A DNA stretch of 64,000 bases from Nitrospirota bacterium. Lineage in GTDB: Bacteria > Nitrospirota > Thermodesulfovibrionia > UBA6902. Under the pieces are notes generated by a model. That model was given only the letters and a program-made list of their open reading frames with translations, made no database searches and was not told the origin of the DNA. Location: NCBI GenBank assembly GCA_016215115.1, contig JACRLN010000037.1, forward strand, positions 30,551 through 94,550. Reading direction: 5' to 3'. Both the position numbers and the translations under genes were made by a program. Of the stretch, positions 6,062 to 32,272 are shown piece by piece (positions within the stretch are counted from its first letter, which is position 1; every line of letters starts with the position of its first letter).

Positions 6062-6784
6062 ATGAATAAGATTGCATTAATTATTGGTGGAAGCCGGGGA
6101 ATAGGGCGTTCAATAGCCTTACGGTTAGCTCAGGCAAAATTTAATATCTGGTTAACATATAAAAGTAACCATGAGGCTGCAAAAAAAGTAAAATCAGAGA
6201 TAGAATCTCTTGGAACGGCGTGCGATTTAATCCCTTTTGACGTCTCGGATTTTAAAGAAACAGAAACCGCGCTGTCACCGAGGCTGGAGGATACGGCCCC
6301 TGATGTGCTGGTCTACAATTCAGGAATAACTCGTGACAACCTAATGGTATGGATGACAAAAGAAGAGTGGGACTCGGTCCTCTCCACAAACCTTGACGGG
6401 TTTTACAATGTGACCCGCACGGTATTGTTTTCGATGTTAAGGGCCAAAAGGGGGCGCATTATAATTATTTCGTCAGCCTCGGGCCAGATAGGTCAGGCGG
6501 GTCAGGTAAATTACTCTGCTTCCAAGGCAGGCCTGATCGGCGCTGCCAGGGCCTTAGCACGGGAAGTGGGGAGGAAAAATATTCTTGTCAACGTTGTTGC
6601 GCCGGGTTTTATAGAAACTGAAATGACCGAGAAGTTCCCGAAAAAGGATATCCTGCCATTAATTCCATTTAACCGTCTCGGCAGTCCCGATGATGTAGCG
6701 TCAGTAGTCAGCTTTCTGTGCACTGAAGAACATATGTACATTCACGGACAGGTTATCGGAGTTAACGGCGGACTTGTGATGTAG
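6062..6784 (+). CDS. fabG: 3-oxoacyl-ACP reductase (SDR; ApeQ/FabG-like ketoreductase)
   Basis: 240 aa; cofactor loop GGSRGIGRS; NSGITRD; catalytic S...YSASK; typical FabG C-terminus GQVIGVNGG. Confidence 0.9.
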   Translation: MNKIALIIGGSRGIGRSIALRLAQAKFNIWLTYKSNHEAAKKVKSEIESLGTACDLIPFDVSDFKETETALSPRLEDTAPDVLVYNSGITRDNLMVWMTKEEWDSVLSTNLDGFYNVTRTVLFSMLRAKRGRIIIISSASGQIGQAGQVNYSASKAGLIGAARALAREVGRKNILVNVVAPGFIETEMTEKFPKKDILPLIPFNRLGSPDDVASVVSFLCTEEHMYIHGQVIGVNGGLVM

Positions 6785-6800
6785 TTTCTTAATCATGTTT

Positions 6801-6998
6801 TTAACCACAGAGCACACAGAGGAAAATTAAGCAGCCGCAGAAATTAGTCGTCATGCCCGAAGTTCTTAATCGGGCATCCAGTTCTTTAACTGTCTGGATT
6901 CCCGCTTACTGACTGCCAACAGTAGGTGCTTTAGGCACGGGAATGACAACTAATGTGGCTTTATTTATGAAGTCCTTAGCAATCTGTGAAATCTGTGG
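6801..6998. repeat. MITE-like repeat, family B (CCACAGAG-type termini), copy B1, with a family A copy (A2, 6849-6970) nested inside
   Basis: Left end ttaaccacagagcacacagagg; right end atctgtgaaatctgtgg. The interior 6849-6947 is a complete double-hairpin family A element. Confidence 0.6.
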
Positions 6999-7012
6999 AT
7001 GAAAAGGTTCAA

Positions 7013-8518
7013 ATGAAAAAATACGATGACATTGTTGTTGGAAGCGGTATCAGCGGTTTGACAATGGCCCTCATTCTGGGAATGAACGGCCGGAAGGTAT
7101 TACTGCTCGAAAAAAGCCCCCGGATAGGCGGATCTGTATCAAGGTTTTATAAAAGGGGTATCCCTTTTGATACCGGCTTCCATTTTACAGGGGGGCTTGA
7201 TCGGAGCGGCATTCTGCATGACATATTATTAGTTCTCGGGATACGGGATTTAATCCAGCCGATATTCCTTTCTGAAGACAAGGCCCATTGCTTTTTCTTT
7301 GAATCGGAAAACAGGCTCTATGAAATCCCCTATGGAATTGAAAATATTAAAAAGAAATTTAAAGGTTATTTCCCGGGGGAAGGATCAAGCATTGACAGAT
7401 ATTTTGACAAAGTCCGGCAGGTCTGCGCTCACACGCCGTCAATGAACCTGCGTGCACTCGATTCTTCTCTTCAACTGCATCTGGAGGAAGACTTTTTGAG
7501 CCTGGAAGATGTATTAAACGGATTAACCGGCAATAACGTATTAAAAGCGCTGCTGTCCGGTTTTGCGATGTGCTACGGTGTAATGCCGAAGGAGATTTCT
7601 TTTGCCAATCACAGCAGGATGTGCCTTAATCTTTACGAATCGGTTGCACGCATTAAAGACGGCGGCGATGCTTTAATAAGGGCGTATGAGACAAAATTCA
7701 AGAACTTCGATATTGAAATACAATGCAATAAATATATTGCAAATCTTGAGGACATTCAGAACAAAAGGGTCGGCAGATTTATATTGAATACGGGTGAAGA
7801 AATTTCGGCTGTAAACTGCATATTCACGATACATCCCAGGGAAATTTTAAAAATCCTGCCTGAGCAGCACCTGAGCAAAGCCTTTATATCCCGGGTTTCA
7901 TCGTTTGAATCTTCAGCGGGATTTTTCTCTGTTTTTGCGGTGTTGGATAAAAAATATAATGACTCTGACTTCGATTCAACGATAGTCTCAATTTTTCCGC
8001 ACACTGACGTAAACCTGCTGTTAGACCCGGCAAACACAGGGGCGTCAGCTTTGGTAATTATGAAATCAATTGAGGAAGAGAGAGGAAAAACCTATAGGAC
8101 CATCAATACGTTTGAGCCGTCTTTTTTCGAGCATGTTGAAGCATGGAAGGATACAAAAACAGGCCATAGACCGCAATCTTACATGGATTACAAAAAAGAG
8201 AGGGTCGAAAAGATAATAGGACGCATTGTTAATACATTTCCGAAATATAAAGACCGGATAAAGGCCGTTGATTCTGCGTCTGTGCTTACATTCAGGGATT
8301 ATCTGAATAGTCCCGACGGCTCTGCATATGGAGTGAAACAGAAAATAAGTCAGTTTAACCTTCTCGGGAAGCTGCCCCTGCGCAACTTACATGCTGCGGG
8401 GCAGAGCTCCGTTTTACCGGGGATAATCGGCGCGATGATGTCTTCGTTCATTGTTGGACGGACAATTTTAGAAAAAGAAAAGTATAATAAATTTTTAAAC
8501 CAGAACCTATGCAATTAA
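7013..8518 (+). CDS. FAD/NAD(P)-dependent oxidoreductase, phytoene desaturase (CrtI)-like family
   Basis: Rossmann motif DIVVGSGISGLTMALILGMNGRKVLLLEK near the N-terminus; ~500 aa. The ATG at 7013 is preferred over the GTG at 6986, which lies inside the repeat terminus. Confidence 0.75.
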   Translation: MKKYDDIVVGSGISGLTMALILGMNGRKVLLLEKSPRIGGSVSRFYKRGIPFDTGFHFTGGLDRSGILHDILLVLGIRDLIQPIFLSEDKAHCFFFESENRLYEIPYGIENIKKKFKGYFPGEGSSIDRYFDKVRQVCAHTPSMNLRALDSSLQLHLEEDFLSLEDVLNGLTGNNVLKALLSGFAMCYGVMPKEISFANHSRMCLNLYESVARIKDGGDALIRAYETKFKNFDIEIQCNKYIANLEDIQNKRVGRFILNTGEEISAVNCIFTIHPREILKILPEQHLSKAFISRVSSFESSAGFFSVFAVLDKKYNDSDFDSTIVSIFPHTDVNLLLDPANTGASALVIMKSIEEERGKTYRTINTFEPSFFEHVEAWKDTKTGHRPQSYMDYKKERVEKIIGRIVNTFPKYKDRIKAVDSASVLTFRDYLNSPDGSAYGVKQKISQFNLLGKLPLRNLHAAGQSSVLPGIIGAMMSSFIVGRTILEKEKYNKFLNQNLCN

Positions 8519-9741
8519 AAAGAGTGGTAATTACAGGTATCGGGGTGGTCTCCCCGCTGGGAAACAGTGTTGCTTCTTTTATTGACGGGCTTGAGACAGG
8601 GAAAAGCTCGGTCCGTTTTATGGAAGAATGGACCCATTATAACGGCATGAGAAGTTTTGTGGCGGCTCCTGCTGAGCTGAAAGATGAAAAAAAAATTCCG
8701 CGCCAGAACAGACGGACGATGGGGCGTATGAGCATATTTGCTGCGCAGGCTTCTGAGCAGGCGGTTGCGGATTCAGGGATAACTCCTGCTGAGATATCTT
8801 CAGGAAGGACCGGCTGCATCATCGGGTCCACAATGGGAAGCGCAAAGAGCATTAATGACGCATTTGAAATAATGCTCCCCGAAAGAGATTTGACACGGCT
8901 CTCATCCTCTATGTTTTTTCAGTGCATGTCTCATACCGCTACCGTGAATGTTGCACAATATCTGGGATTGACCGGATATTTAATGACCTCGGCAGCGGCA
9001 TGCGCCTCATCTTTGCAGGCGGTCGGCATAGCTTATGATTTAATCAGGCTGGGAAGGCAGGATCTCTTCTTATGCGGAGGGACCGAGGAACTTCACCCGA
9101 CTGTTACAGGTTCTTTTGATATCCTTTTTGCGACCTCGGTTAAATACAATCAAGCGCCTCAAAAAACGCCCCGGCCTTTTGACAAAGACCGTGACGGACT
9201 GGTCTGTGGAGAGGGCAGCGGGATAATGGTGTTGGAAGAATATGAACACGCGGTACGCAGAAATGCAAAAATTTATGCTGAAATTGCCGGTTACAGCACA
9301 TTTGGAAGCGGCTCTCACATGAGTCAGTCAGACAAAAAATCCATGATTCATTGCATGAGCGAGGCCCTTCATTCTGCGGATATCAAGCCGGGACAGATAG
9401 ATTATATAAATGCACATGCCACGGGAACGCCGCAGGGAGACAAAGAGGAAGCCGAAGCGATAAAGGAAATATTCGGCGCTTCCGTGCCTGTCAGCAGCCT
9501 GAAAGGTTACATCGGACATACTCTCGGCGCTTCAGGCGCTATTGAATTGATTGCCTCATTAATTATGATGGAAAAGGGCATTATATACCCGACTCTGAAC
9601 CTGAAAGAAATCGATCCTGATTGCGGAGGGATCGCCCATATTACAGGGCCGGTCCGGAAGGAGATAAACACGGTCCTGAAAAACTGTTTCGCCTTTGGCG
9701 GGATCAATGCCTCGCTGGTTTGCAGAAAAAATATATACTAA
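8509..9741 (+). CDS. Beta-ketoacyl-ACP synthase (FabF/ApeR-like KS)
   Basis: 410 aa; active-site Cys in SAAACASSLQA; His motifs NAHATGT and GHTLGASG; start overlaps the upstream stop by 10 nt. Confidence 0.9.
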   Translation: MQLKRVVITGIGVVSPLGNSVASFIDGLETGKSSVRFMEEWTHYNGMRSFVAAPAELKDEKKIPRQNRRTMGRMSIFAAQASEQAVADSGITPAEISSGRTGCIIGSTMGSAKSINDAFEIMLPERDLTRLSSSMFFQCMSHTATVNVAQYLGLTGYLMTSAAACASSLQAVGIAYDLIRLGRQDLFLCGGTEELHPTVTGSFDILFATSVKYNQAPQKTPRPFDKDRDGLVCGEGSGIMVLEEYEHAVRRNAKIYAEIAGYSTFGSGSHMSQSDKKSMIHCMSEALHSADIKPGQIDYINAHATGTPQGDKEEAEAIKEIFGASVPVSSLKGYIGHTLGASGAIELIASLIMMEKGIIYPTLNLKEIDPDCGGIAHITGPVRKEINTVLKNCFAFGGINASLVCRKNIY

Positions 9742-9749
9742 GGGGGTCG

Positions 9750-9902
9750 TAAGTAAAGCCATATTGTTTGTCATTCCCGTGCCTAAAGCACCTACTGTTG
9801 GCAGTCAGTAAGCGGGAATCCAGACAGTTAAGAGGAACTGGATGCCCGATTAAGAACTTCGGGCATGACGGATGAAGTTATACGTGGCTTTACTAATGAA
9901 CT
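9750..9902. repeat. MITE family A copy A3; inverted, near-identical twin of A2
   Basis: 9770-9870 is the reverse complement of 6849-6947 apart from a 2-nt indel (hand alignment). Outer blocks aagtaaagccatattgtttg and gtggctttactaatgaac are present. Confidence 0.9.
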
Positions 9903-9949
9903 CATTAGTATATGACATAACAGACCCTATGACGGAAGGAGACGACTGA

Positions 9950-10216
9950 ATGACCGAACAGGAAATTATCGAGATAACAAACAGGGTGTTTGAAGAATCG
10001 TTTGAGATTGAAAAAGAGAAATTGCATCCGCAGGCGCATATATTTCAGGATCTCGGGATTGACAGTCTTGATGTTGTTGATCTGGTAGTTGCGCTTCAGA
10101 AGAGTTTCGGGGTCAATATACGGAATGAGGAAAAGGTAAGGAACATCCGCACCCTGCAGGATATTTATGATTTTATTGCAGAAATAAAAAACGAAAAAGA
10201 AAGGCAAAGTTACTAA
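9950..10216 (+). CDS. Acyl carrier protein
   Basis: 88 aa; phosphopantetheine attachment motif LGIDSLDVVDLV. Confidence 0.9.
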   Translation: MTEQEIIEITNRVFEESFEIEKEKLHPQAHIFQDLGIDSLDVVDLVVALQKSFGVNIRNEEKVRNIRTLQDIYDFIAEIKNEKERQSY

Positions 10217-10219
10217 GGA

Positions 10220-10339
10220 GTTCATAAGTATGAAGACACGTTTGTCATGCCCGCAGGTAGTAAGCGGGCATCCAGTGCCTTTCTGGACTCCCGCTCAACA
10301 GACTGCGGGAATGACGCATATGTATTCTTACTTATGAAC
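10220..10339. repeat. MITE family A copy A4 (complete, with terminal inverted repeats GTTCATAAGTA / TACTTATGAAC)
   Basis: gttcataagtatgaagacacgtttgtcatgcccgcaggtagtaagcgggcatccag...ctggactcccgctcaacagactgcgggaatgacgcatatgtattcttacttatgaac. Confidence 0.85.
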
Positions 10340-11122
10340 TACTTAGCAAATCGAAAACATTCGCAAATCTCCATGAATTGTTTTATACTATTTTTTCTGA
10401 ATTTATATTTTTATTTCGTTTTTATAATATTTTCCATGATAGGAATTCCTGTTTTAATAATATTTGTCGCTTTTATATCGCTGTTTGCTCCAAAACGTTT
10501 TGTGATGAAACGTTTCCGCCGTTCTATAAGCTGGTACGGCAAAGGGGTGACTCTGGTTTTTTTCCCGTTTATACGGCTCCGTTATGAGGACCACTCAAAA
10601 AACGACTCGCAGGAACCATATATCTTTGTCAGCAACCACAGGGCCGCGTCGGATGCGTTTTTGATGTGCGTATTGCCGCATGAAGCTGTGCAGGTTGTAA
10701 ATGTCTGGCCGTTCCGTATCCCGGTTCTCGGTTTTTTTGCCCGGCTTGCCGGCTATTTAAATATCAGAATGATAAGCCACGAACTGTTTCTTGAGAAGGC
10801 CCTGAAATTACTGGAGGAGAAAGTCTCCATCATATTTTTTCCGGAAGGAACACGTTCAGGCGGCAAACAGGTAGGCAATTTTCACGGATCTGCATTCCGT
10901 CTTGCGCTGGCGTCAAAAGCTTCTATCGTTCCACTCTGCATCACGGGGAATGAGAATATGCCGCCGAAGGGTTCATGGCTTATGAGACCCGGCACCATCA
11001 TTGTGCGCAGGCTGCCTGCGATTGAATGGCAGGATTACAGAGACATGAATGTGTTTTCATTAAAGAACATGGTACGGGAGATTATAAGCAGGGAATTGTC
11101 ATTGATGGAGAAAGCGGCATGA
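10334..11122 (+). CDS. Lysophospholipid (1-acyl-glycerol-3-phosphate, PlsC-type) acyltransferase, membrane-anchored
   Basis: HX4D motif NHRAASD and FPEGTRS motif; N-terminal TM helices. The ORF-track start 10247 would translate the MITE, so ATG 10334 (or 10373) is preferred. Confidence 0.8.
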   Translation: MNYLANRKHSQISMNCFILFFLNLYFYFVFIIFSMIGIPVLIIFVAFISLFAPKRFVMKRFRRSISWYGKGVTLVFFPFIRLRYEDHSKNDSQEPYIFVSNHRAASDAFLMCVLPHEAVQVVNVWPFRIPVLGFFARLAGYLNIRMISHELFLEKALKLLEEKVSIIFFPEGTRSGGKQVGNFHGSAFRLALASKASIVPLCITGNENMPPKGSWLMRPGTIIVRRLPAIEWQDYRDMNVFSLKNMVREIISRELSLMEKAA

Positions 11123-12417
11123 TGGATTTTTATCAATACAGGAATATTGAATTCTCCAGACCGGATGAAATCAAAAATGTGCAGGAGAGGCTTTTGAAAA
11201 ACCATCTCGATTACATTTTTGATCATTCTCAGTACTACCGCAGGGTTTTAAACGGTATTGCTTTAAATAGAATAACCCTCGATGAAATTTCCAGACTGCC
11301 GTTTACGGATAAAGCGGTATTTGAAAATCATAATGACGAATTGCTTTCAGTCCCCGTTTCTAAAATAGTCGACATAGTCCTGTCTTCAGGGACTACAGGC
11401 AAACCCACCAGGATAATGTATACAGAAAATGATTTGCAGAGACTGGCATACAATGAAGAAATTTCTTTTGCCGGATGCGGTATTACCTCTGATGATGTTG
11501 TTTTGCTTACATGCACGATAGACAGGTGTTTTGTTGCCGGGCTTGCATATTTCCTGGGGATAAGAGCGCTTGGAGCCGCTGCTGTCAGAAACGGTCTCAA
11601 TAGCTTTGAAAGCCACATGGAAATGATACGGCGCATGAAACCTACCGTGATTGTCGGAGTGCCGTCGTTCATGCACAAACTGGGACTGTTCCTGCGGTCA
11701 AAGGGCCTTGAGCCCCGCGATAGCAATGTAACGAAACTTGTATGTATCGGTGAGCCCTTGAGGGACCGGGACCTTTCTTTGACGAAGATAGGCGGGTATC
11801 TTGAAGAAATATGGGGTGCAAAGGTATTCTCAACATATGCATCTTCCGAGACGATTACGTCATTCTGCGAATGCTCTGCGCAGAAGGGCGGGCACCTTCA
11901 TCCCGAACTGGCAATAGTTGAAATTGTTGATGACGATGGAGAAGTCCTGCCTTACGGAGAAACCGGAGAAGTGGTCGTAACAACATTTTTTGTAGAGGGA
12001 ATGCCCTTATTGAGATTCAGGACGGGTGATGTGAGTTTTTTAATAAACGAACCGTGCAGTTGCGGCAGGTTTTCGCCAAGACTCGGACCGATACTGGGAA
12101 GAAAAAAACAGATGATAAAATACCGGGGCACCACCCTGTATCCGCAGGCTGTTTATTCAGTGCTTGACGGGATACCGGAGGTTACTGAATACTATGTTAC
12201 CGTTTCCAGCGATTTCGAACTGTCCGATGCGTTGAAGGTATATGTTTCTGTAGAAAACAATGCCTGTTCTGCTGAAAGGATTATGGACAAACTCCAGGCG
12301 CACTTAAGGGTGAGACCGGAAGTTGTAATATCAGGCAAAGATGAGATTCAAAGTCAGCTTTTTTCCGGAAATTCACGGAAGGCAATTCGCTTTATAGACA
12401 GGAGAATAAACCAATGA
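11119..12417 (+). CDS. Adenylate-forming enzyme, phenylacetate-CoA ligase (PaaK)/F390 synthetase-like
   Basis: AMP-binding loop SSGTTGKPT; ~430 aa; ATGA start/stop overlap with the acyltransferase at 11119-11122. Confidence 0.8.
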   Translation: MMDFYQYRNIEFSRPDEIKNVQERLLKNHLDYIFDHSQYYRRVLNGIALNRITLDEISRLPFTDKAVFENHNDELLSVPVSKIVDIVLSSGTTGKPTRIMYTENDLQRLAYNEEISFAGCGITSDDVVLLTCTIDRCFVAGLAYFLGIRALGAAAVRNGLNSFESHMEMIRRMKPTVIVGVPSFMHKLGLFLRSKGLEPRDSNVTKLVCIGEPLRDRDLSLTKIGGYLEEIWGAKVFSTYASSETITSFCECSAQKGGHLHPELAIVEIVDDDGEVLPYGETGEVVVTTFFVEGMPLLRFRTGDVSFLINEPCSCGRFSPRLGPILGRKKQMIKYRGTTLYPQAVYSVLDGIPEVTEYYVTVSSDFELSDALKVYVSVENNACSAERIMDKLQAHLRVRPEVVISGKDEIQSQLFSGNSRKAIRFIDRRINQ

Positions 12418-13889
12418 CGAGATGTCAGCCACGAATATACGGTGCGGAATTTTCCCGGGAAGAGATAGAAGACGCCGCAAGCAGGGGCAGCCTTCTGTCC
12501 ATGGAAATAGAATTTAACCGTGATTGCAATTTCAACTGTATCTACTGTTACGCGCGAAATGGTGTAAGTGGTAAACAGGAGTTGACTGCAGAAGAAATCA
12601 GGGATGTAATCAGTCAGGCGAAAAAAATAGGGGTAAAAAAGATCATCATCCTCGGGGGAGAGCCTATGCTGTATCCCCGGGTTATGGAGATGATAGAGTT
12701 CATAAAAGGGCTTGAGATAGAGATTGAACTCTTCACAAACGGGACCAATATAACGGAAACCCTCGCAAAGAAATTATCCGAAAAAGGCGTTATAGTTGTT
12801 CTGAAATTGAATACATCCGATGAAAAGCTCCAGGATATACTTGCCGGGAGAAAGGGGGCCTACAGGCAGATTCATACTGCACTTGATAATCTGAAAAAGG
12901 CAGGGTATCCTGACGCCACTCCCATGGGAATAAGCACGGTTATATGCCGCCAGAATTTTAACGAGCTTGTTCAGATGTGGGAATGGCTGAGAGAACAGAG
13001 AATTTCCCCGTATTTCGAGATGATAACCCCGCAGGGTAAGGCCAGGGAGAATGACGGTCTGTCGGTTGAATCAGATAAAATCAGGGATCTTTTCTTCAAG
13101 CTTTCCGAGATTGATCGTGAAAAATACGGATACAACTGGTTGCCTCAGCCGCCGCTGGTAGGCGGACAATGCCTTAGACATCAGTTTTCATGCGCCGTTA
13201 ATGTTTATGGAGACGTCAATCCATGTGTCGGGGTCACTATCCCGGTAGGCAATATAAGGGAGAAAAAACTTGCCGACATTATTAAGGACAGTGAAGTTAT
13301 AGAGGACATCAGGAATTATAAAAAATTGATAAAAGGACCTTGCAGTAAATGTGCAAAAAATGACGAATGCTACGGGTGCCGCGGTGCGGCATATCAAATG
13401 ACAGGAGATTATCTGGCCTCAGACCCGCTTTGCTGGGAAAATATAAACAGGCAGGAGGATATTCTTCACCTTCCCGTTGAAACCTCCGGACTTGTTCCAC
13501 ACAAAAAACCTATACTTATCGTGAACAAACTTATTGAGGTCCTGGAAAAGTCGTCTGTTGCAGAGGCGGAAATTACGGAAGACATGATTTTTACAGGTGA
13601 AAACGGGAAACTTGATGATACGTCTTATCCTGAAATAATCTCGCAGGCAATAGCCGCTCAAAACGGACTCAAACACGCAGGAAACGGAGGTTCAGGGTCG
13701 CAGGGACTATTAATCGGGATAAAGAAATTTGAGATTTTAGGCAGCGCCGGAGCCGGTGACAGTCTGAAAGTATTTGTTTACAAGGTAGCCAGATACAGCG
13801 AGTTCGGGATTATCAGAGGAGAAATTTTCAAAGGGCAGGACTTGATTGCCAAAGGCGAGATAACGGTCTGGCACAATGACGATAAATAG
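12414..13889 (+). CDS. Radical SAM/SPASM enzyme fused to a C-terminal FabZ/ApeI-like hotdog domain
   Basis: CNFNCIYC (CxxxCxxC) at 12525-12548; Cys-rich SPASM-like CSKCAKNDECYGC...C. Residues ~350-491 (nt ~13461-13886) start LVPHKKPILIVNKL, compare the FabZ LPHRxPxLLVD. ATGA overlap at the start. Confidence 0.8.
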   Translation: MTRCQPRIYGAEFSREEIEDAASRGSLLSMEIEFNRDCNFNCIYCYARNGVSGKQELTAEEIRDVISQAKKIGVKKIIILGGEPMLYPRVMEMIEFIKGLEIEIELFTNGTNITETLAKKLSEKGVIVVLKLNTSDEKLQDILAGRKGAYRQIHTALDNLKKAGYPDATPMGISTVICRQNFNELVQMWEWLREQRISPYFEMITPQGKARENDGLSVESDKIRDLFFKLSEIDREKYGYNWLPQPPLVGGQCLRHQFSCAVNVYGDVNPCVGVTIPVGNIREKKLADIIKDSEVIEDIRNYKKLIKGPCSKCAKNDECYGCRGAAYQMTGDYLASDPLCWENINRQEDILHLPVETSGLVPHKKPILIVNKLIEVLEKSSVAEAEITEDMIFTGENGKLDDTSYPEIISQAIAAQNGLKHAGNGGSGSQGLLIGIKKFEILGSAGAGDSLKVFVYKVARYSEFGIIRGEIFKGQDLIAKGEITVWHNDDK

Positions 13890-13905
13890 TGCCCTGTCAT
13901 AAGCT

Positions 13906-13934
13906 GTCGTCATTCCCGCGCAAGTGAGAATCCA
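13906..13934. repeat. MITE family A remnant (single degenerate hairpin), copy A5
   Basis: gtcgtcattcccgcgcaagtgagaatcca in the 48-bp gap before the LolA-like gene. Confidence 0.5.
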
Positions 13935-13937
13935 TTG

Positions 13938-14603
13938 ATGAAAATAAACAAAATATTTTTTATATCCTGTCTCGTTACTTGTTTTTTGTTCCTGTTTATC
14001 GCTTCAGCATTGACAGCGGGAGATGAAACCGCTGACATCACAGAAATGCTGAGCAGGCTCGGAGAAAATGTTTCAGCCTTCAGGAGCTTAAAAACGAATT
14101 TTGTTCAAGAGAAGGATCTGGCAATATTTCAAAACAGGATTATCATGAAGGGCAGGATTTATCTGCAAAAGCCGAACAGGATGGCCTGGCATGTTGACGA
14201 GCCTGTTAAATATTCGGTAGTAATTACAGATAAATCCATTCGTCAATGGGATGAAGATACAAACCGGGTTCAGGAGATCGGTTTATCCGGTAATCCCGTT
14301 TTTCAAAATGTACTGAATCAGTTGACAGTATGGTTCTCAGGAGATTATGTTTCACTGCTGAAAGACTATAATGTGCGCATCCTGAAGAAGTCACCTCTTG
14401 TATTTGAGTTTACGCCAAAAGGGAATAATGTTGCAGGAAAGATCATCAAAAACATAACTATCGGTCTCAGGGAAGATGAACGATATTTACAACAGATTAA
14501 GATTCTTGAGATCAGCGGAGACAGCACCACCATCATTTTCAAAGACACCATCTTTAATGCCCCGATTAACGATCCGGACTTTGAGGTAAAGAGGCGTGTT
14601 TGA
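13938..14603 (+). CDS. LolA-like outer-membrane lipoprotein carrier family protein (ApeL-like)
   Basis: ~221 aa; signal peptide KINKIFFISCLVTCFLFLFIASALTA; LolA-like pattern FxQEK...GxIYLQKPNRMAW. Confidence 0.7.
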   Translation: MKINKIFFISCLVTCFLFLFIASALTAGDETADITEMLSRLGENVSAFRSLKTNFVQEKDLAIFQNRIIMKGRIYLQKPNRMAWHVDEPVKYSVVITDKSIRQWDEDTNRVQEIGLSGNPVFQNVLNQLTVWFSGDYVSLLKDYNVRILKKSPLVFEFTPKGNNVAGKIIKNITIGLREDERYLQQIKILEISGDSTTIIFKDTIFNAPINDPDFEVKRRV

Positions 14604-16965
14604 CAGATATGCAAGTCGTTTATACGACTTCACGGCAAGACACAAACGGTTTGTGCAGCTTATCCTCATCTTTTTAATTATTATCAGTCTTGCCGCCCTT
14701 TTTTTTGTGAAGTTTGAGAGCAATATGTCCGAGATCCTGCCCCAGAATAAGATCATCAGCCGGAGCATTGAATTTTTCCGTGATTCAAACATTGCCGGCA
14801 AGGTCATCGTATCTTTAGAACTGACCTCTCCTGACAAAGATCAAAAGGACCTTTTGAGAGAGATTGACTCGCTGGCCGGTTCCATGGACAAGAGTTTGTT
14901 CCCTGCAATTGCTGTCGGTATATCTGAATCTTCATCTGCAAATGCAATAGATAATATGTTTAAAAACCTTCCGGGAATGGTCTCTGAGAGCGAGATTTCT
15001 CAAATTGATTCATGGATAAACGTGGAACGCGTATCTCAAAAACTTCACGACGCCTACCTGCAACTGTTAAAACCCCAGGGGGTTTTCATGAACTCCATGC
15101 TCCGCTCCGATCCGCTTGGATTGAGGATGCTTGTATTTGAAAAACTCAAAACACTGTCATCTTCAACCGGATATGATGTGGAAATAAAAGACGGGCATTT
15201 TATAAGCAGGGACGGCAGGCATGCCATGTTGATTGCAAACTCCGCAGTTCCCGTTACAGATTCTGAAGGCTCAAAGAAATTGCTGGATTCTCTGAAGAAT
15301 AACCTCAAAAAACTGCCTGAATACATCTCGGCTGATATCATTTGCGTACATGCGCATACTGTCAGCAATGAAAAAACAATCAGGAGAGATATAAATTTCA
15401 TCAGCGTTGTCGCGGCGGTGGTCCTGATACTGTTGTACGTTTTTGTCATAAGAGACTTCAGCGCCGTTCTGATATTTTTTGTCCCCGTGATAGCCCTTCT
15501 GTTTTCCATTGTCCTGTCGTATTTTTTTCTTGGGAAACTTTCATACTGGGTAATCGGCTTGGGGTCCACAGTGGCAGGAATTACCATTGATTACGGGACA
15601 CATGTTTATTTTGCTGCAAGGGGGAAGATCGACCCGTCCACTTTTGTAAAGCATGTTATAAAACCGGTCAGCTTCGGCGCATTTACAACCATAGCGATAT
15701 TCATTGCCTTCTTTTTCTCAAAGATTGAGGGCTATAACCAGCTGGCTGTTTTTACAATCATCACCATTATTCTATCAACGGCTGTCTCTATATTTGTGCT
15801 TCCGCATCTCATCGTAAATACAACTGGGAAATCACACTTTGCAGACCATGCTGCAAACAAACTTGAGAACACAAATCTCTCAAACGGCCTGACTGTTTTA
15901 TCATGGTTATTTTTAACATTCGCATTGGCCTCCTTTGCTGCTCATGTAGAGTTTGAGAGGGACATAAAGAAGATTGACGGGACTGAAAAAAACATTATAC
16001 AGGCTGAAGAACGTTTCCATAAAACATGGGGCGGTGAGAAGACACATGCCGTGTTTGTTGTCAGTTCAAAAAATTACGAAGAAGCGCTTGAAGTGAATGA
16101 AAAGATTTACAGTGAGGCTGTGCAGGCTGTTGGGACGGGGAATTTTACCAGCATCGCTTTATTATTGCCGTCTGAAAAGACAAGAAAAGAAAATTCAGAA
16201 CGATGGAACAGATTCTGGTCGGAAGATAGGAGACAGAGGCTCAGGAAATTGTTTTTAGAGGAGGGCCGAAAGTACGATTTTTCAGAAAACGCGTTCGAAC
16301 CGTTTTTCTCGAATCTGAAAGCATATAGTAGTAAAAACGATGTCCCGGATTTCAATTTTTTAGAACGCTTTGTTCATAAAACCAATGACGATTACCGTTT
16401 GATGTCATTTTTCCCTGATACTAAAGAATATGTAGACTTGCTGAATGAAATAAGCACCCGGTATCCGAATACATATCTGGTCTCTGAGACTGTCCTTTCA
16501 GACACTTTGTCTAAAGTTGTTTCCGCAGATTTAAAGCTCATGATATGGATATCGGCTGTAAGTGTAATGGTCCTTACTTACATGTGTTTTTTCAATATCA
16601 GAGAAACCTTGATAGCGCTTGTGCCTCCAGCGACCGGAATTATCTGGCTTATGGGCATCATGTCGCTTCTCGGGCTTTCAATAAATGTTGCTAACATGAT
16701 TGCGGGTGTACTGGCGATAGGGCTTGCTTCGGACTATGGAATATTTATGACATACAGAAGCCGTTTCAATATACAAGCCGGCACCGTCCTGGCGATAACC
16801 CTCTGTACAGTGACCACTCTTATTGGCGCAGGCGTCCTGATTTTTGCAAAACATCCGGCCCTGTCATCAGTAGGAGTAACAATGGTTATCGGCGTAGGCA
16901 CAGGATTTCTTTCCTCAATAGTTGTAGTGCCAAAGCTTTGCGAACTTTTTGTGAAAAAAAGATAG
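14596..16965 (+). CDS. MMPL/RND-superfamily exporter (ApeM-like predicted lipid exporter)
   Basis: 789 aa; two blocks of ~5-6 TM helices, each preceded by a large soluble loop; GTG start overlapping the upstream stop. Confidence 0.8.
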   Translation: MFDRYASRLYDFTARHKRFVQLILIFLIIISLAALFFVKFESNMSEILPQNKIISRSIEFFRDSNIAGKVIVSLELTSPDKDQKDLLREIDSLAGSMDKSLFPAIAVGISESSSANAIDNMFKNLPGMVSESEISQIDSWINVERVSQKLHDAYLQLLKPQGVFMNSMLRSDPLGLRMLVFEKLKTLSSSTGYDVEIKDGHFISRDGRHAMLIANSAVPVTDSEGSKKLLDSLKNNLKKLPEYISADIICVHAHTVSNEKTIRRDINFISVVAAVVLILLYVFVIRDFSAVLIFFVPVIALLFSIVLSYFFLGKLSYWVIGLGSTVAGITIDYGTHVYFAARGKIDPSTFVKHVIKPVSFGAFTTIAIFIAFFFSKIEGYNQLAVFTIITIILSTAVSIFVLPHLIVNTTGKSHFADHAANKLENTNLSNGLTVLSWLFLTFALASFAAHVEFERDIKKIDGTEKNIIQAEERFHKTWGGEKTHAVFVVSSKNYEEALEVNEKIYSEAVQAVGTGNFTSIALLLPSEKTRKENSERWNRFWSEDRRQRLRKLFLEEGRKYDFSENAFEPFFSNLKAYSSKNDVPDFNFLERFVHKTNDDYRLMSFFPDTKEYVDLLNEISTRYPNTYLVSETVLSDTLSKVVSADLKLMIWISAVSVMVLTYMCFFNIRETLIALVPPATGIIWLMGIMSLLGLSINVANMIAGVLAIGLASDYGIFMTYRSRFNIQAGTVLAITLCTVTTLIGAGVLIFAKHPALSSVGVTMVIGVGTGFLSSIVVVPKLCELFVKKR

Positions 16966-16981
16966 GTAGACCTAAAAAAAG

Positions 16982-17147
16982 CAATTGAGCCACAGAGATC
17001 ACAGAGAAAGACTTAAAAGACAATATGTTAAGACATAAAGTCATTTCACCTTTCGGGTGAGAGCAAAACAGATGCAAATATTATGAGTAAGTTTTTGAAT
17101 ACGAATTCTTTTATCTCTGTGTTCTCTGTGTACTCTGTGGTTAATTG
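16982..17147. repeat. MITE family B copy B2 (complete)
   Basis: Terminal inverted repeats caattgagccacagagatcacagagaaag and ctctgtgttctctgtgtactctgtggttaattg. Confidence 0.85.
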
Positions 17148-17168
17148 CCGTTTATAGGGTAGAAAATT

Positions 17169-17834
17169 ATGAAACTGTTAGCGGTAATCTTTATCGTGCT
17201 TGTTTGCGTCGTTGGCTGCAGCGGTATTCCATTTCAGAAAACTTTATACGTTTCGATGGAATCTGTTGACCCGTGGACGCTTGTGGAACAGTTCAGGAAT
17301 AATTCTCCTGAAAAATTCGCGCTCATAAACACAATTGTTTTTGGATACAATTGGAATAAATTATCAGCGTTAGGTTATATAAAGGTAGATGCAGGGGAAA
17401 AGACGTTTACAGCAGTATGCATCAACCCGATGGGCGTGAAGCTGTTTGAATTGACAGGCGATAAAGATAAAATTGATCCCCATTTTGTAATGGAGCAGTT
17501 TTCCAGGAAGGGGAATTTTGCCGGTACGGTAGGAGAGGATATCAGGCGGATCTATTTCGACCTGACACCTTCTGCCGGGGCCGTGGTTAATAAGAAAAAA
17601 ATAAAAATTGTTTTTAGCGAACCTGCGGGGTCAGGTATTTTAGAATATATATTTGCAGGCTCCGCCGGTCTTCTTGTTGAAAAAAATTATTATGAAGATG
17701 GTATATTAAACTGGCGTATTTCCTACTACGAATACCTGCAAAAAGACGGAAAAAATTATCCTTCAGGTATTATTCTGGAAAATTACAGGTATGGATACAG
17801 CCTTACCATAAAATTAAAGGAGATCCGGGGTTGA
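17169..17834 (+). CDS. Lipoprotein, DUF3261/ApeN-like
   Basis: 221 aa; lipobox VVGC after a hydrophobic signal (MKLLAVIFIVLVCVVGCSG); position directly after the MMPL gene, as in ape clusters. Confidence 0.55.
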   Translation: MKLLAVIFIVLVCVVGCSGIPFQKTLYVSMESVDPWTLVEQFRNNSPEKFALINTIVFGYNWNKLSALGYIKVDAGEKTFTAVCINPMGVKLFELTGDKDKIDPHFVMEQFSRKGNFAGTVGEDIRRIYFDLTPSAGAVVNKKKIKIVFSEPAGSGILEYIFAGSAGLLVEKNYYEDGILNWRISYYEYLQKDGKNYPSGIILENYRYGYSLTIKLKEIRG

Positions 17835-18214
17835 GTATCATAAAGAGAGAGGTTGAACAATGCATGACCGCTTTAGAAGCAGTGGTAATACAGGAATTGC
17901 CGGCGCTGACTGCACGTTTCACATTCCCCGAAGATTTTATAGGTTTTCAGGGTCATTTCCCCGGGAATAAGATACTTCCGGGCGTCTGTCAGATACAATG
18001 CGCCCTGACCATGCTTGAGAAATGGAGGAACAGGGATGTCATACTTAAGGAAATAGTGCATGCAAAGTTTTTTTCAACGGTAGTCCCCTCGGAAGAGTTT
18101 GCCTGTGTGTGCAAAGGCATCGAGGCAACAGACGCTGATTTTATATTGAAGTCATACCTCAGCAAGGGCGACAGGAAGATTTCGGAGTTGAAGTTGAAAG
18201 TAAGATTTAAATAA
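17831..18214 (+). CDS. 3-hydroxyacyl-ACP dehydratase (FabZ/ApeP-like hotdog)
   Basis: 127 aa; catalytic motif FQGHFPGNKILPGV; TTG start overlapping the upstream stop. Confidence 0.8.
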   Translation: MSIIKREVEQCMTALEAVVIQELPALTARFTFPEDFIGFQGHFPGNKILPGVCQIQCALTMLEKWRNRDVILKEIVHAKFFSTVVPSEEFACVCKGIEATDADFILKSYLSKGDRKISELKLKVRFK

Positions 18215-18224
18215 GTTAAACGCT

Positions 18225-18311
18225 GTCATTCCCGCAGTCCTTAAGCGGGAATCCAGAAGCAGTTGATTTAAAAGAATACTGGATTCCCGATAAAAAACTT
18301 CGGGAATGACG
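18225..18311. repeat. MITE family A copy A6
   Basis: gtcattcccgcagtccttaagcgggaatccag...ctggattcccgataaaaaacttcgggaatgac. Confidence 0.85.
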
Positions 18312-18391
18312 AGTCGACACTTTGCATATATCTTGATTGATATAAACAGTTTATACCCACAGAAATGTCGGACGAACGAAATTTTTAAAAA

Positions 18392-18883
18392 ATGATGAAT
18401 AGGCGAAGAGGGAAGAATTATTTTAAGAGGATTGATGGAGCGCCTGACCCTGTTGTGGTTGAAGTCAGAAGGCGCGTACATTTCAATGAAGTTGATATCC
18501 TTGGGATGGTCTGGCACGGCAGATACCCTGTTTATTTTGAAGAAGGGTCCGAAGAATTAGGCAGATCCTGCGGCTTGTCTTATAGAAATTTTTATGAATC
18601 AGGATTACGCGCCCCGATTGTTCAGCTTCACATTGATTATTTTAAACCGCTGCGTCTCGCTGAGGAGTTTACAATACGCACTGTACTGTTATGGGACGAA
18701 AGTTCACGCCTGAATACAGAGTATTATCTTTTAAAAACTGACGGAAGTCTTGCGACAAGCGGTTATACGGTGCAATTGCTGACCGGCGCCGAGTCAGGAG
18801 AAGTTTGCATTATATCCCCTCCGCTATTGGAAAGGTGCAGGACCAGATGGAAAGCAGGAGAATTTCATCATCAAACAAAATAA
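18392..18883 (+). CDS. Acyl-CoA/acyl-ACP thioesterase, 4HBT (YbgC/ApeK-like) hotdog
   Basis: 163 aa; VRRRVHFNEVDILGMVWHGRYPVYFEEG matches the 4HBT signature (acidic residue, then GxVxHxxY). Confidence 0.75.
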   Translation: MMNRRRGKNYFKRIDGAPDPVVVEVRRRVHFNEVDILGMVWHGRYPVYFEEGSEELGRSCGLSYRNFYESGLRAPIVQLHIDYFKPLRLAEEFTIRTVLLWDESSRLNTEYYLLKTDGSLATSGYTVQLLTGAESGEVCIISPPLLERCRTRWKAGEFHHQTK

Positions 18884-19998: not shown

Positions 19999-20017
19999 GA
20001 TACATTAAAGAAAATCC

Positions 20018-20689
20018 ATGATCAACATTCACGGCATAGGATGGATAACTAAAGAAGAATACGGCTGTATCGCCAGAGGGGAGAAGATCCCTTATAAAAA
20101 CGTTGTTGAATTTGACAGCTTTTTAAGAAAGAGAATTTTCCCCTGTCCGTTTAAGAATTTCGGGAGACTTGATAGAATATCAAAGCTGACCTGTTATGCG
20201 ATTGCGCTTGCTATGAAGGATGCCGGTATTTCTTACATACCTCAGAAAAGGCAGGACATCGGGATTGTCGGCGCCGGCGATTCAGGTTCGCTGCAATCGG
20301 ATATTGATTATTTCAAAGACTATTTAGATTGCGGACGGACATTGTCACGGGGGAATCTCTTTATTTATACCCTGCCTTCAAGCCCGCTGGGAGAAGCGGC
20401 AATACATTTTGGTTTGCAGGGACCATTGTTATACACTGCGGCTCCGGAGGAACCTCTCCGGACAGCAATGACAATTGCATCTGAAATGGTCCTTTCCGGT
20501 GAGACCCCTGCAATTCTTGCCGGGATGACAGAGGATGGTGCGGCTGTCTATTTTGTGCTCATGAAAGACAGCGTTTCCAATAAAAATATTTTATGTGATG
20601 AAAAAGATATCAGGGCAATTTTAAACAAGGGGATGACGTTTAAGAAAATGATTAAAGAGTTGCTAAATTTAAGAAAAGGGAACAATTAA
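20018..20689 (+). CDS. KS-like partner lacking the catalytic core (chain-length-factor/ApeC-like)
   Basis: 223 aa, half the length of a KS; KS N-terminal-like sequence with no Cys-His-His triad; immediately follows a KS. Confidence 0.65.
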   Translation: MINIHGIGWITKEEYGCIARGEKIPYKNVVEFDSFLRKRIFPCPFKNFGRLDRISKLTCYAIALAMKDAGISYIPQKRQDIGIVGAGDSGSLQSDIDYFKDYLDCGRTLSRGNLFIYTLPSSPLGEAAIHFGLQGPLLYTAAPEEPLRTAMTIASEMVLSGETPAILAGMTEDGAAVYFVLMKDSVSNKNILCDEKDIRAILNKGMTFKKMIKELLNLRKGNN

Positions 20690-25548: not shown

Positions 25549-25564
25549 ATAAAGGAGCATACAA

Positions 25565-25849: not shown

Positions 25850-25899
25850 TGAAATCACCTGGTAAAGAACTCCGGGGTTTCCGCAGCTTTTTATGCCAT

Positions 25900-27989: not shown

Positions 27990-28012
27990 TAAAGCGGGTG
28001 GAGATTTTTTAA

Positions 28013-29110: not shown

Positions 29111-29125
29111 ATTTTCAACCCACAT

Positions 29126-29368: not shown

Positions 29369-29370
29369 CT

Positions 29371-30717: not shown

Positions 30718-30721
30718 GCTG

Positions 30722-32014: not shown

Positions 32015-32020
32015 AAGAGC

Positions 32021-32204: not shown

Positions 32205-32272
32205 CTATAGCATTCACACGAAAGTTGGAATCCAGTATAATAAACTGATTCTGGACACCTGCTTTTGCAGGA

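Follow-up and report, generated by a model that had tools for sequence, protein, structure and literature searches.

A radical SAM/SPASM enzyme fused to an ApeP-type hotdog domain in an aryl-polyene-like gene cluster of Nitrospirota: a candidate for radical chemistry on carrier-protein-bound lipids

Why would a radical SAM enzyme carry a dehydratase-type hotdog domain on the same polypeptide? The question is raised by one gene of the window, i.e., the whole 64 kb stretch of Nitrospirota DNA analysed here, and it touches on the radical SAM modification of fatty-acid- and polyketide-type (ketoacyl) lipids, a nearly unexplored field. We know of no enzyme to which ladderane formation has been assigned. 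A 2026 review names ladderanes and the Jaw5 product as the only ketoacyl lipids for which modification by a radical SAM enzyme has been proposed (PMC13459092), and many non-anammox anaerobes have, and express, predicted “ladderane-like” clusters to which no product has been assigned (PMC9902471). The fusion described here is a concrete candidate for radical chemistry acting directly on a growing carrier-protein-bound lipid chain. No characterised enzyme with a radical SAM-SPASM-hotdog architecture was found in NCBIfam, the PDB or the literature searched, in agreement with an earlier note on this DNA that knew of none, and literature searches on radical SAM combined with ApeP, hotdog, aryl polyene, Victivallis or Desulfobacterota returned no paper on the fusion architecture.

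The gene is a single open reading frame, its start codon sharing an ATGA overlap with the stop codon of the AMP-ligase gene upstream, and the ORF, Pfam and structure comparisons bear out the earlier claim that its 491 residues join a radical SAM/SPASM enzyme covalently to a hotdog domain:

12414..13889, + strand: whole fusion gene, 491 aa, radical SAM - SPASM - ApeP-like hotdog
12501..13100, + strand: radical SAM core, residues about 30-229 (Pfam PF04055, invariant residues, fold matches)
13170..13436, + strand: SPASM domain, residues ~253-341, with eight invariant Cys (Pfam PF13186, Cys positions)
13434..13493, + strand: linker, residues ~341-360, conserved and ordered (homologue alignment, pLDDT)
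13476..13880, + strand: ApeP-type hotdog domain, residues ~355-489, with its central helix at 404-420 (profile, Foldseek, alignment)

Pfam Radical_SAM (PF04055) matches residues 32-191 with E=6e-28 and 98.5 bits against a cut-off of 29.5, which places the protein in the superfamily. The reported CNFNCIYC is present at residues 38-45 and constitutes the CX3CX2C motif (C38-x3-C42-x2-C45), which, like a GGE motif at residues 81-83, is invariant in 119 homologues. In Foldseek searches the N-terminal part matched SkfB, SuiB, anSME, MoaA and viperin at E-values of 1e-10 to 6e-15, in keeping with the partial TIM barrel of the superfamily, and the PqqE fold was matched too. SPASM domains follow the consensus CX9-15GX4C ... 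CX2CX5CX3C ... C, which serves two auxiliary 4Fe-4S clusters. Pfam SPASM (PF13186) matches residues 253-313 of the fusion (E=6.5e-8, 33.2 bits against a cut-off of 21.5), a SPASM assignment in its own right, and the cysteines at 253, 260, 271, 310, 313, 319, 322 and 340 are all invariant in the 119 homologues. They are spaced as C253, C260-x5-G266-x4-C271, C310-x2-C313-x5-C319-x2-C322 and C340, with x2 in place of the canonical x3 in the last spacing. The SPASM-like cluster had been described as C310-C340; its five cysteines (310, 313, 319, 322 and 340) are there, but the cluster starts earlier, at C253/C260/C271. Judged from these positions, the eight cysteines are enough for two predicted auxiliary 4Fe-4S clusters.

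The named SPASM equivalogs of NCBIfam can be rejected for this protein, since AhbD (145.5 bits against 500), NirJ2 (138.5 against 500), PqqE (107.9 against 381), MftC (106.7 against 265) and the sactipeptide maturases all score below their cut-offs; the best similarities are to AhbD and NirJ, whose substrates are small molecules. The CX3CX2C and GGE motifs and the fold are common to the fusion and to anSME, SkfB, SuiB, CteB and PqqE, and the eight SPASM cysteines are anSME-like, whereas the substrates of the nearest characterised SPASM enzymes are mostly peptides or cofactors, not acyl-ACPs. To our knowledge, no SPASM member is described with a hotdog domain or within a FAS/PKS elongation cassette.

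More than 100 full-length homologues carry the same fusion, from Nitrospirota, Omnitrophota, PVC and Lentisphaerae, and it is also encoded in the isolate genome of the cultured Victivallis vadensis DSM 14823. The 120 best-scoring homologues listed are 58-95% identical and nearly all full length, and precomputed Pfam assignments give all three domains in 120/120 of them. Across the junction the homologue alignment has zero gaps; in the linker W341, L353 and P354 are invariant and N343 and I350 nearly so (119 sequences), and the AlphaFold model reaches a pLDDT of 89-90 there. For the whole fusion the model has a pLDDT of 87.9 and a pTM of 0.87, an indirect pointer to a fixed domain arrangement, with hotdog topology at 370-488. 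Because the linker is both conserved and confidently modelled, the domain arrangement appears selected and fixed rather than the product of accidental read-through. A sequencing or assembly frameshift that joined a radical SAM gene to a separate ApeP gene, against which the earlier note had cautioned, is thus an extremely improbable origin, given the uninterrupted architecture in over 100 independent assemblies from several phyla and in the V. vadensis isolate, and the gapless junction with its conserved linker. No support for such an artefact was found, although stand-alone ApeP-type proteins do exist: among the best 150 relatives of the hotdog domain (50%-identity cluster representatives), 87 are stand-alone ApeP-type proteins and 46 have the same fusion, in five the ApeP-type domain is fused to a PlsC acyltransferase, and once it is followed by LolA. 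By all indications from the homologues, the fusion is genuine, ancient and found widely among anaerobes. Whether it might prove common and already functionally assigned had been a concern; the architecture is indeed common in metagenomes and machine-annotated (one IMG protein is named [quoted passage not shown]), but no curated family, structure or paper assigns it a function.

What kind of hotdog domain has been fused? The C-terminal segment begins LVPHKKPILIVNKL at residue 360 and, as the earlier note had claimed, lacks GHFP, none of its histidines (352, 363, 421 and 487) lying in such a context. Pfam ApeP-like (PF22817) scores it at 13.5 bits on the whole protein and 16.9 bits on the domain alone, under the cut-off of 27, and the homologues P0047 (23.7 bits) and P0204 (23.1 bits) also fall slightly short; the domain HMMs that had been proposed as a check therefore place Radical_SAM and SPASM above their Pfam cut-offs and leave the hotdog domain sub-threshold for a single sequence. 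The hotdog family profile matches ApeP (6QSR_B) with E=1.4e-13 over 137/147 positions and FabZ at 3e-6 or worse. In the model of the fusion alone the segment does fold as a hotdog, and its best hotdog match in Foldseek is 6QSR_B, “Dehydratase Heterocomplex ApeI:P” (TM 0.80, rmsd 2.3 A); modelled by itself, the domain has the same top structural match (TM 0.83/0.80, rmsd 2.4 A), with an identity to ApeP of only 18-19% in the structural alignments. Despite the sub-threshold Pfam score, family profile and predicted structure together make the hotdog assignment decisive, and the E-values and the conservation across phyla exclude a chance origin of the domain matches. The class proposed earlier, ApeI/FabZ-like, gives way to a specifically ApeP-like one. 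E407 aligns with the Glu of the ApeP EMMAQAI helix and Q411 with its Gln, and E407, Q411 and D449 are invariant across phyla. A catalytic FabZ/FabA dehydratase was rejected, and the domain should not be filed as FabZ, because the GHFP His is absent and Q411 fills the FabZ Glu position (alignment to C. jejuni FabZ 3D6X). In the structure comparison amxFabZ gave only a generic hotdog match.

A candidate partner is encoded downstream:

17831..18214, + strand: ApeI-type hotdog protein of 127 aa, stand-alone, carrying FQGHFPG; presumed to partner the ApeP domain of the fusion

The GHFP motif that had been claimed for this gene is present, the protein matches Pfam ApeI-like with E=2.7e-4, and it has a Q at the position of the FabZ catalytic Glu. 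Exactly one ApeP-type domain, that of the fusion, and this one ApeI-type ORF occur in the 64 kb window. Among the 17 fused loci scanned (L001-L014, L020, L025 and L026), 12 have an ApeI-type gene ~3.7-5 kb downstream of the fusion; the downstream flank is absent in L004 and L012, no ApeI-type ORF was found within 10 kb of the fusion in L013 and L014, and L007 encodes, besides the fusion, an ApeP-ApeI double hotdog that is complete. In most of these loci the fused domain is the sole ApeP-type subunit, and in the window it is paired 1:1 with the ApeI-type gene. Double-hotdog proteins of the ApeP-ApeI kind also occur within the same domain family: in P0210 the N-terminal half shares 33% identity with the fused domain (E=4e-27), and the C-terminal half shares 39% with the 17831-18214 protein (E=5e-13). 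ApeI and ApeP are described as the two partners of a heterodimer and as sharing one active site (PDB 6QSR; PMC8041823), so the heterodimeric dehydratase that had been cited for ape systems, together with an ape-type context at this locus, stands. The label “non-catalytic” attached to the fused domain is doubtful: with E407 kept, a partner without the FabZ-type Glu and an active site that is shared (PMC8041823), the domain probably supplies half of that site. From these sequence relationships, the fused hotdog domain most likely pairs with the ApeI-type 17831-18214 protein as the dehydratase of the cluster; without it the His-only ApeI protein would be partnerless, since the window has no other ApeP-type subunit.

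The surrounding genes, identified by Pfam, are arranged in two same-strand groups:

6062..24474, + strand: conserved cassette, in its first part SDR, phytoene-desaturase-like flavoprotein, KS, ACP, PlsC acyltransferase, AMP-ligase and [fusion]; after the fusion, to 24474, LolA, MMPL, DUF3261, ApeI, thioesterase, KS, CLF, two B12-radical SAM enzymes and GT2
24640..37410, + strand: second half, with LpxL-like acyltransferase, ACP, polysaccharide deacetylase, two KS, ACP and a 448-aa protein without a Pfam match; then, to 37410, FAD oxidoreductase, B12-radical SAM, AMP-ligase, B12-radical SAM and methyltransferase

The order of the cassette is conserved across phyla: ten of the fused loci keep it (L001-L003, L005, L006, L009, L010, L020, L025 and L026), as do L004, L008, L012 and L014 on flanks that are shorter or partial, and L007, L011 and L013 are rearranged or partial. 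At 6062-24474 (+) the ape-type set is complete (KS/CLF, KR, ApeI plus ApeP, ACP(s), an ApeH-like ligase and a thioesterase) and is accompanied by acyltransferase/GT and LolA-MMPL-DUF3261 export genes, which qualifies the locus as an ape-type cluster. The canonical E. coli ape gene set, by contrast, has no phytoene-desaturase-like flavoprotein, no B12-radical SAM enzymes and no enzyme of the radical SAM/SPASM type (PMC8253772). The extra radical SAM enzymes and the flavoprotein suggest a product that differs from, or is modified beyond, an aryl-headed polyene pigment.

The closest relative of the fused domain, in sequence and in hotdog fold, is ApeP of the Xenorhabdus doucetiae ApeI:ApeP complex (6QSR). 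Both lack the GHFP His and share the helix Glu and Gln (E407 and Q411), and ape systems and this cluster alike pair the domain with a His-bearing ApeI-type protein amid KS/CLF, KR, ACP, ligase, thioesterase, LolA, MMPL and DUF3261. ApeP is a free subunit in 6QSR, whereas here the ApeP-type unit forms the C-terminal end of a larger radical SAM/SPASM protein. A parallel exists in Acinetobacter baumannii, where ApeI is fused to the ApeH ligase (PMC8041823). In both fusions one Ape dehydratase protomer is tied to a pathway enzyme and the other is free, which would unite that enzyme and the dehydratase in a single complex, but in A. baumannii it is the His-bearing ApeI half that sits on the starter-activating ligase, and here it is the ApeP half that sits on the radical SAM/SPASM enzyme.

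The gene content also resembles that of the antiSMASH “ladderane” clusters of non-anammox anaerobes and of the synteny group of Desulfotalea psychrophila and Kuenenia kuste3335-3352 (PMC2649909, PMC9902471): common to these and the window are SAM radical enzymes, a phytoene-desaturase-like flavoprotein, a phenylacetyl-CoA-ligase-like enzyme, a glycosyltransferase, several FabF paralogues, ACPs and a deacetylase, and the taxonomic range agrees as well (Desulfobacterota, Omnitrophota, Verrucomicrobiota/PVC). The likeness to Kuenenia is one of gene content, and PMC2649909 and PMC9902471 make no mention of the radical SAM-SPASM-hotdog fusion. Kuenenia kuste2802-2805, 3335-3352 and 3603-3608 include cobalamin-dependent or untyped “SAM radical” enzymes and no described SPASM-hotdog fusion; the anammox radical SAM enzyme of stated type is cobalamin-dependent, of Cluster I (PMC10139942; 2026 bioRxiv 10.64898/2026.05.19.726425), and for the others the tables give simply “SAM radical enzyme” or “SAM methylase” (PMC2649909, PMC4790861). 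An anammox origin was rejected, the closest genome being a Thermodesulfovibrionia MAG (L001, 96% identity), and so was membership of the anammox ladderane cluster, the published Kuenenia gene lists being without the fusion. That cluster is defined by amxACP, amxFabZ and FabF2 together with a B12-radical SAM enzyme and by an anammox planctomycete as host, a definition that the window does not match.

On balance, we favour a working three-module enzyme, as the domain layout predicts, in which the hotdog domain would pair with ApeI as a dehydratase and so bring the radical enzyme to the ACP station. The N-terminal 345 residues would hold a SAM-cleaving 4Fe-4S cluster and two auxiliary clusters. 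The ApeP-type domain and the ApeI-type 17831-18214 protein would form a heterodimeric 3-hydroxyacyl-ACP dehydratase with a single active site, ApeI contributing the GHFP histidine and the fused domain E407, the Glu of the helix, as well as a portion of the acyl tunnel, and the type II FAS/PKS line that this dehydratase would serve is aryl-polyene-like (“ladderane-like”). The radical SAM active site would thus be held where ACP brings 3-hydroxyacyl and enoyl intermediates, and might abstract an H atom from the ACP-bound chain right before or after dehydration, the auxiliary clusters accepting an electron to yield either a desaturated chain or, through cyclisation or cross-linking, a C-C bond. 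Such an enzyme offers a testable handle, namely a likely place (the ACP/dehydratase station) and a partner (the ApeI-type protein), and its occurrence in the cultured V. vadensis DSM 14823 puts lipidomics, heterologous expression and in vitro reconstitution within reach. A bolder version, which we regard as rather improbable, is that of an unrecognised mode of building lipids in which a radical SAM enzyme is a subunit of the elongation dehydratase of a type II FAS/PKS and makes C-C bonds or rings “on line” from enoyl- or polyenoyl-ACP. If true, it would be the chemistry long postulated, and never found, for stepwise ladderane-type cyclisation, in a cassette common to many anaerobic phyla. Jaw5 is HemN-like and is not known to be of the SPASM type or to be fused to a dehydratase. 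It is a radical SAM cyclopropanase paired with an iterative PKS, and the proposals for Jaw5 and for “type c” ladderane formation embody the concept that the fusion suggests in physical form, radical SAM modification of a carrier-bound enoyl between elongation cycles (PMC13459092, PMC10139942); the likeness is one of proposed mechanism only.

The main competing explanation, possible and in our view unlikely, is that the hotdog domain is an acyl-chain- or ACP-binding adaptor, or a neighbour fused through operon adjacency, with the radical step on the finished chain or assembled lipid, e.g., at the PlsC step. It draws on unfused orthologues in Desulfobulbales and Desulfobacterales (52-59% identity), which end directly after the SPASM domain and for which the next gene upstream is usually a KS or PlsC gene. 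Within 10 kb of them no ApeP-type ORF was found, even with a broader ApeP profile, and an ApeI-type ORF was usually absent; no LolA, SDR or ACP homologue was found either, and an MMPL-like match, weak at 23%, appeared in L022 and L027 only. The radical chemistry is therefore not strictly dependent on the dehydratase, which, like the double hotdog of L007, speaks to some extent against the earlier idea that through the fusion the radical enzyme acts on ACP-bound enoyl or polyene intermediates as the chain grows. A split arrangement of radical SAM gene and adjacent ApeP, for which these loci were considered, is rejected; this is not a simple fused-versus-adjacent Rosetta pair, and the Rosetta-stone evidence lies instead in ApeP-ApeI. 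The ApeP-type domains joined to PlsC and once followed by LolA, both of which flank the fusion here, indicate that the fusion may partly reflect operon adjacency, and the separate double hotdog of L007 and the loci without a nearby ApeI-type ORF (L013 and L014) fit the same explanation. Against it, neither the window nor most fused loci have another ApeP-type subunit, so that ApeI would otherwise be partnerless; E407, Q411 and D449 are invariant, even in L007; and the linker is conserved and confidently modelled. Were the adaptor model true, the fusion would still exemplify the reuse of a hotdog domain, as a module that delivers substrate to a radical enzyme.

We consider it very unlikely that the substrate of the radical SAM part is, as for most SPASM enzymes, a peptide or protein (a RiPP precursor, or a protein of the cluster, e.g., an ACP), the hotdog domain having some other role. 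The closest solved relatives in fold and sequence (SkfB, SuiB, anSME, CteB and PqqE) do modify peptides or proteins, and the below-cut-off NCBIfam similarities include PqqE, MftC and the sactipeptide maturases; yet the best of these, AhbD and NirJ, have small-molecule substrates, neither Pfam nor the model reveals a RiPP-recognition domain and only ~30 residues precede the radical SAM core, and in the cassette no short precursor-like gene was noted among genes that all encode lipid/polyketide enzymes and exporters.

As to regulation, candidate sigma-54 promoter sites before the cluster are no more numerous than expected by chance, and the one good site (5277-5292, − strand) points away from it; a histidine kinase and a sigma-54 activator are encoded upstream of the cluster.

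Within a stretch in which all genes lie on the + strand (6062-37410), a single ORF joins a radical SAM-SPASM enzyme to a C-terminal hotdog domain of the ApeP type.

Features of the gene cluster and its hotdog and radical SAM proteins
12414..13889, +: radical SAM-SPASM-ApeP fusion gene, single ORF, 491 aa
17831..18214: ApeI-like stand-alone hotdog protein (Pfam ApeI-like, E=2.7e-4)
6062-24474, +: first half of the cluster, with SDR; phytoene-desaturase-like flavoprotein; KS; ACP (9950-10216); PlsC; AMP-ligase; the fusion; LolA; MMPL; DUF3261; ApeI; thioesterase; KS; CLF; two B12-radical SAM enzymes; GT2
24640-37410, +: second half of the cluster, with LpxL-like acyltransferase; ACP (25565-25849); polysaccharide deacetylase; two KS; ACP (29126-29368); 448-aa protein; FAD oxidoreductase; B12-radical SAM; AMP-ligase; B12-radical SAM; methyltransferase
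20689-21954, 21951-23324, 32273-33745 and 35169-36584: four B12-binding radical SAM genes
29371-30717, +: 448-aa protein within the cluster

The ATG of the fusion gene overlaps the stop of the upstream AMP-ligase gene as ATGA (12414-12417), which suggests that translation of the two is coupled. The protein carries CNFNCIYC at residues 38-45 and cysteines at positions 4, 38, 42, 45, 178, 253, 260, 271, 310, 313, 319, 322 and 340; its C-terminal segment, which begins LVPHKKPILIVNKL at residue 360, lacks a GHFP motif. Pfam searches with the whole fusion place Radical_SAM at residues 32-191 (E=6e-28) and SPASM at 253-313 (E=6.5e-8), both above the curated cut-offs, and an ApeP-like match at 360-454 that is sub-threshold (13.5 bits against a cut-off of 27; 16.9 bits with the C-terminal 146 residues alone). 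Every element described in the earlier note is thus where it had been placed, save that the SPASM cysteine set starts at C253 and not at C310.

The earlier note also raised the concern that a frameshift might have merged two genes. Searching 5.8 billion proteins for homologues gave 1875 relatives. Of these, the 120 top-scoring ones, mostly from Nitrospirota MAGs, are 58-95% identical and almost all full length, with three shorter or partial exceptions that cover 92-94%; all 120 have precomputed Pfam matches to Radical_SAM, SPASM and PF22817 (ApeP-like). They are named no further than 'radical SAM protein', except that IMG calls one of them 'radical SAM enzyme/predicted hotdog family 3-hydroxylacyl-ACP dehydratase'. 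The SPASM-hotdog junction shows neither a gap nor a variable linker in alignments of 23 and 119 sequences; in the larger one, linker residues W341, L353 and P354 never change, and N343 and I350 almost never. A taxonomic scan limited to one genome per species shows the fusion uninterrupted in Nitrospirota/Thermodesulfovibrionia (96% identical in the closest locus, L001), 'Deltaproteobacteria' and Pseudomonadota MAGs, Omnitrophota, PVC-group MAGs and Lentisphaerae, and in the isolate Victivallis vadensis DSM 14823. The gap-free junction, the conserved linker and the uninterrupted architecture across phyla rule out a frameshift, and we regard an artefact as wholly implausible.

The fused domain is an ApeP-type hotdog rather than an ApeI- or FabZ-type one, as judged from profile and structural matches to the same protein, ApeP in chain B of 6QSR ('The Dehydratase Heterocomplex ApeI:P from Xenorhabdus doucetiae'). 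A profile built from 14 C-terminal domains matches this chain with E=1.4e-13 over 137/147 positions, whereas its best FabZ match reaches only 3e-6. In the AlphaFold model of the full-length fusion (pLDDT 87.9, pTM 0.87), residues 370-488 fold as a classic hotdog around a central helix (404-420), and the best hotdog match found by Foldseek is 6QSR_B (TM 0.80, rmsd 2.3 A); the domain modelled alone again retrieves 6QSR_B first (TM 0.83/0.80), with many FabZ structures next. The 'ApeI/FabZ-like hotdog' proposed earlier therefore stands as to fold but not as to type. HMM alignments place Q411 at the FabZ catalytic Glu position and E407 at the Glu of the ApeP EMMAQAI helix. Hotdog residues P362, H363, E384, E407, Q411, A414, G431, K437, D449, G469 and E482 are invariant in the 119-sequence alignment, and E407, Q411 and D449 remain so even among the most divergent fused proteins. 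One fused locus, L014, has Gln at the H363 position, so this His is not essential.

When all ORFs of the 64 kb window are scanned with HMMs, the fusion carries the sole ApeP-type domain and a single protein is of the ApeI type. The latter, which reads ...FIGFQGHFPGNKILPGV..., has the GHFP His and a Gln at the FabZ Glu position (PGVCQIQ). Its gene start overlaps the DUF3261 stop (17831-17834), which couples these two genes as well; the TTG at 17831 may not be the true start, since the reading frame is open from 17696. As in the window, an ApeI-type gene lies ~3.7-5 kb downstream of the fusion in 12 of the 17 fused loci scanned; two others end before the expected position, and L013 and L014 have no ApeI-type ORF nearby. 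ApeI and ApeP form a heterodimeric dehydratase 'with a single active site' (PMC8041823). Here the ApeI-type protein would supply the His, while the fused domain would contribute E407 as the acid along with a portion of the tunnel, so that the fused domain is probably half of an active site. As the earlier note had it, only the separate protein has the GHFP motif; 'non-catalytic' is probably the wrong word for the other half.

An exhaustive profile search with the C-terminal domain against 1.84 billion cluster representatives returned 2861 relatives at E<=1e-3, 860 of them at <=1e-10.

Architectures among the best 150 relatives of the C-terminal domain
Stand-alone ApeP-type (~140-157 aa): 87
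Radical SAM-SPASM-ApeP, fragments included: 46
ApeP-ApeI double hotdog (~295 aa): 12
PlsC acyltransferase-ApeP (~400 aa): 5

Among the 46 are a radical SAM-SPASM-ApeP protein that continues into LolA (P0149, 720 aa) and a PlsC-(radical SAM remnant)-ApeP protein (P0133, 717 aa). In one double hotdog, P0210, the N-terminal half shares 33% identity with the fused domain (E=4e-27) and the C-terminal half 39% with the ApeI protein of the window, GHFPG included (E=5e-13), an independent link between ApeP- and ApeI-type domains. Fusions of ApeP-type domains with neighbours occur in P0134, P0178, P0204, P0240, P0259, P0133, P0149 and P0200-P0269. In one Nitrospirota MAG (L007) a complete double hotdog and the radical SAM fusion occur together, at 5222-6145 and 9974-11488, giving two ApeP-type domains per ApeI-type domain.

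Orthologues that end right after SPASM, at 52-59% identity, occur in Desulfobulbus, Desulfofustis, Desulfatitalea, Desulfobacter and related MAGs; the unfused loci (L015-L019, L021-L024, L027-L029) belong to Desulfobulbales, Desulfobacterales and one Victivallales MAG. Their lipid clusters are reduced or different, without LolA and usually without ApeI, and even a broader profile finds no ApeP-type ORF within 10 kb of the orthologue. The Pfam-checked Desulfobulbus locus L016 has PlsC directly upstream of the orthologue, together with B12-radical SAM, AMP-ligase, DegV/FakA-like protein, GT2, LpxL-like acyltransferase and KS genes, and no ApeI, LolA, MMPL or SDR. In a neighbour-joining tree (no bootstrap) the fused Lentisphaerae, PVC and Omnitrophota forms are basal and the unfused clades nest within fused ones, a pattern that suggests that the fusion is old and that the domain was lost later.

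None of the three cluster sites varies in the 119-sequence alignment, nor does the GGE motif, so the radical SAM enzyme is presumably active. It reaches no NCBIfam equivalog, the best being AhbD (145 bits against 500), followed by NirJ2, PqqE and MftC, all below cut-off. In Foldseek the N-terminal part of the AlphaFold model matches the SPASM enzymes SkfB, SuiB, anSME, CteB and PqqE; sequence comparison puts SkfB (1e-14), viperins and SuiB closest among solved relatives, with the lipid-acting GDGT-MAS at only 1e-7. Auxiliary clusters of SPASM enzymes typically take an electron from the substrate radical, which would favour an oxidative outcome (desaturation or C-C bond formation) over methylation.

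On balance we lean towards a reading in which the hotdog domain pairs with ApeI as the cluster's single-site dehydratase and thereby positions the active site of the radical SAM enzyme at the ACP station, where it would act on ACP-bound hydroxyacyl or enoyl intermediates. In the architecture survey the ApeP-type domain tends to be joined to an adjacent operon neighbour, whichever gene that is, and unfused orthologues in clusters without ApeP, and usually without ApeI, are the main evidence that the radical chemistry does not strictly depend on the dehydratase. The hotdog could accordingly be an acyl/ACP adaptor or a product of operon adjacency, with the radical enzyme acting on a finished chain or lipid, the main rival, which we rate as a real possibility but less likely, given the invariant E407. 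A peptide or protein substrate, for which one might cite the proximity to SkfB and SuiB, seems improbable for an enzyme set among ACP, KS and acyltransferase genes.

The first half of the cluster matches the ape gene set (PMC8253772), to which it adds the flavoprotein and radical SAM enzymes. The order from SDR to GT2 is kept in most fused loci, including Omnitrophota and Victivallis at 24-67% identity (tblastn matrix); the cassette is rearranged or partial in L007, L011 and L013. With the fusion, the cluster holds five radical SAM enzymes, and the B12-radical SAM gene at 20689 is the most conserved cassette gene across phyla (64-86% identity in fused loci, 61-62% in two of the unfused Desulfobulbus loci, L015 and L016). 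By gene content the cluster matches the Kuenenia/Desulfotalea 'ladderane/PUHC' synteny group (PMC2649909, PMC4790861) and likewise the antiSMASH 'ladderane' clusters, products unknown, of Desulfobacterota, Omnitrophota, Verrucomicrobiota and others (PMC9902471). The Kuenenia 'ladderane' cluster kuste3335-3352 has the same gene-content list as 25565-37410. In L013 the counterpart of 25565-37410 directly adjoins the fusion gene, as does a counterpart (29% identity) of the 448-aa protein, which has no Pfam match.

We found no description of a radical SAM-SPASM-ApeP-type hotdog architecture in the literature; it is visible in domain databases, yet uncharacterised. Its ingredients are known: an ApeP-type dehydratase half, a SPASM radical SAM enzyme, and a dehydratase half fused to a pathway enzyme, as likewise in A. 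baumannii, whose ApeH ligase carries ApeI fused at its C-terminus (PMC8041823). The fusion does not yet amount to a new principle. Conserved across phyla and tractable by experiment, it is a lead towards the radical modification of lipids bound to ACP and towards the 'ladderane-like' clusters, which still lack an explanation.

Upstream of the cluster lie genes for a histidine kinase and a sigma-54 enhancer-binding response regulator (238-3246, +), followed by a 607-aa ORF without a Pfam match (3317-5140, -). This ORF is preceded by a sigma-54-type site with one mismatch, TGGCATGATCCTTGCA (5277-5292, -); across the window the overall count of such sites equals chance. Outside the cluster, 39844-44172 (+) encodes a 1442-aa protein with BadF/BcrA-type ATPase domains and DUF2229 'CoA enzyme activase', 3' of which lie genes for a MetA-pathway outer-membrane protein and then SMC.
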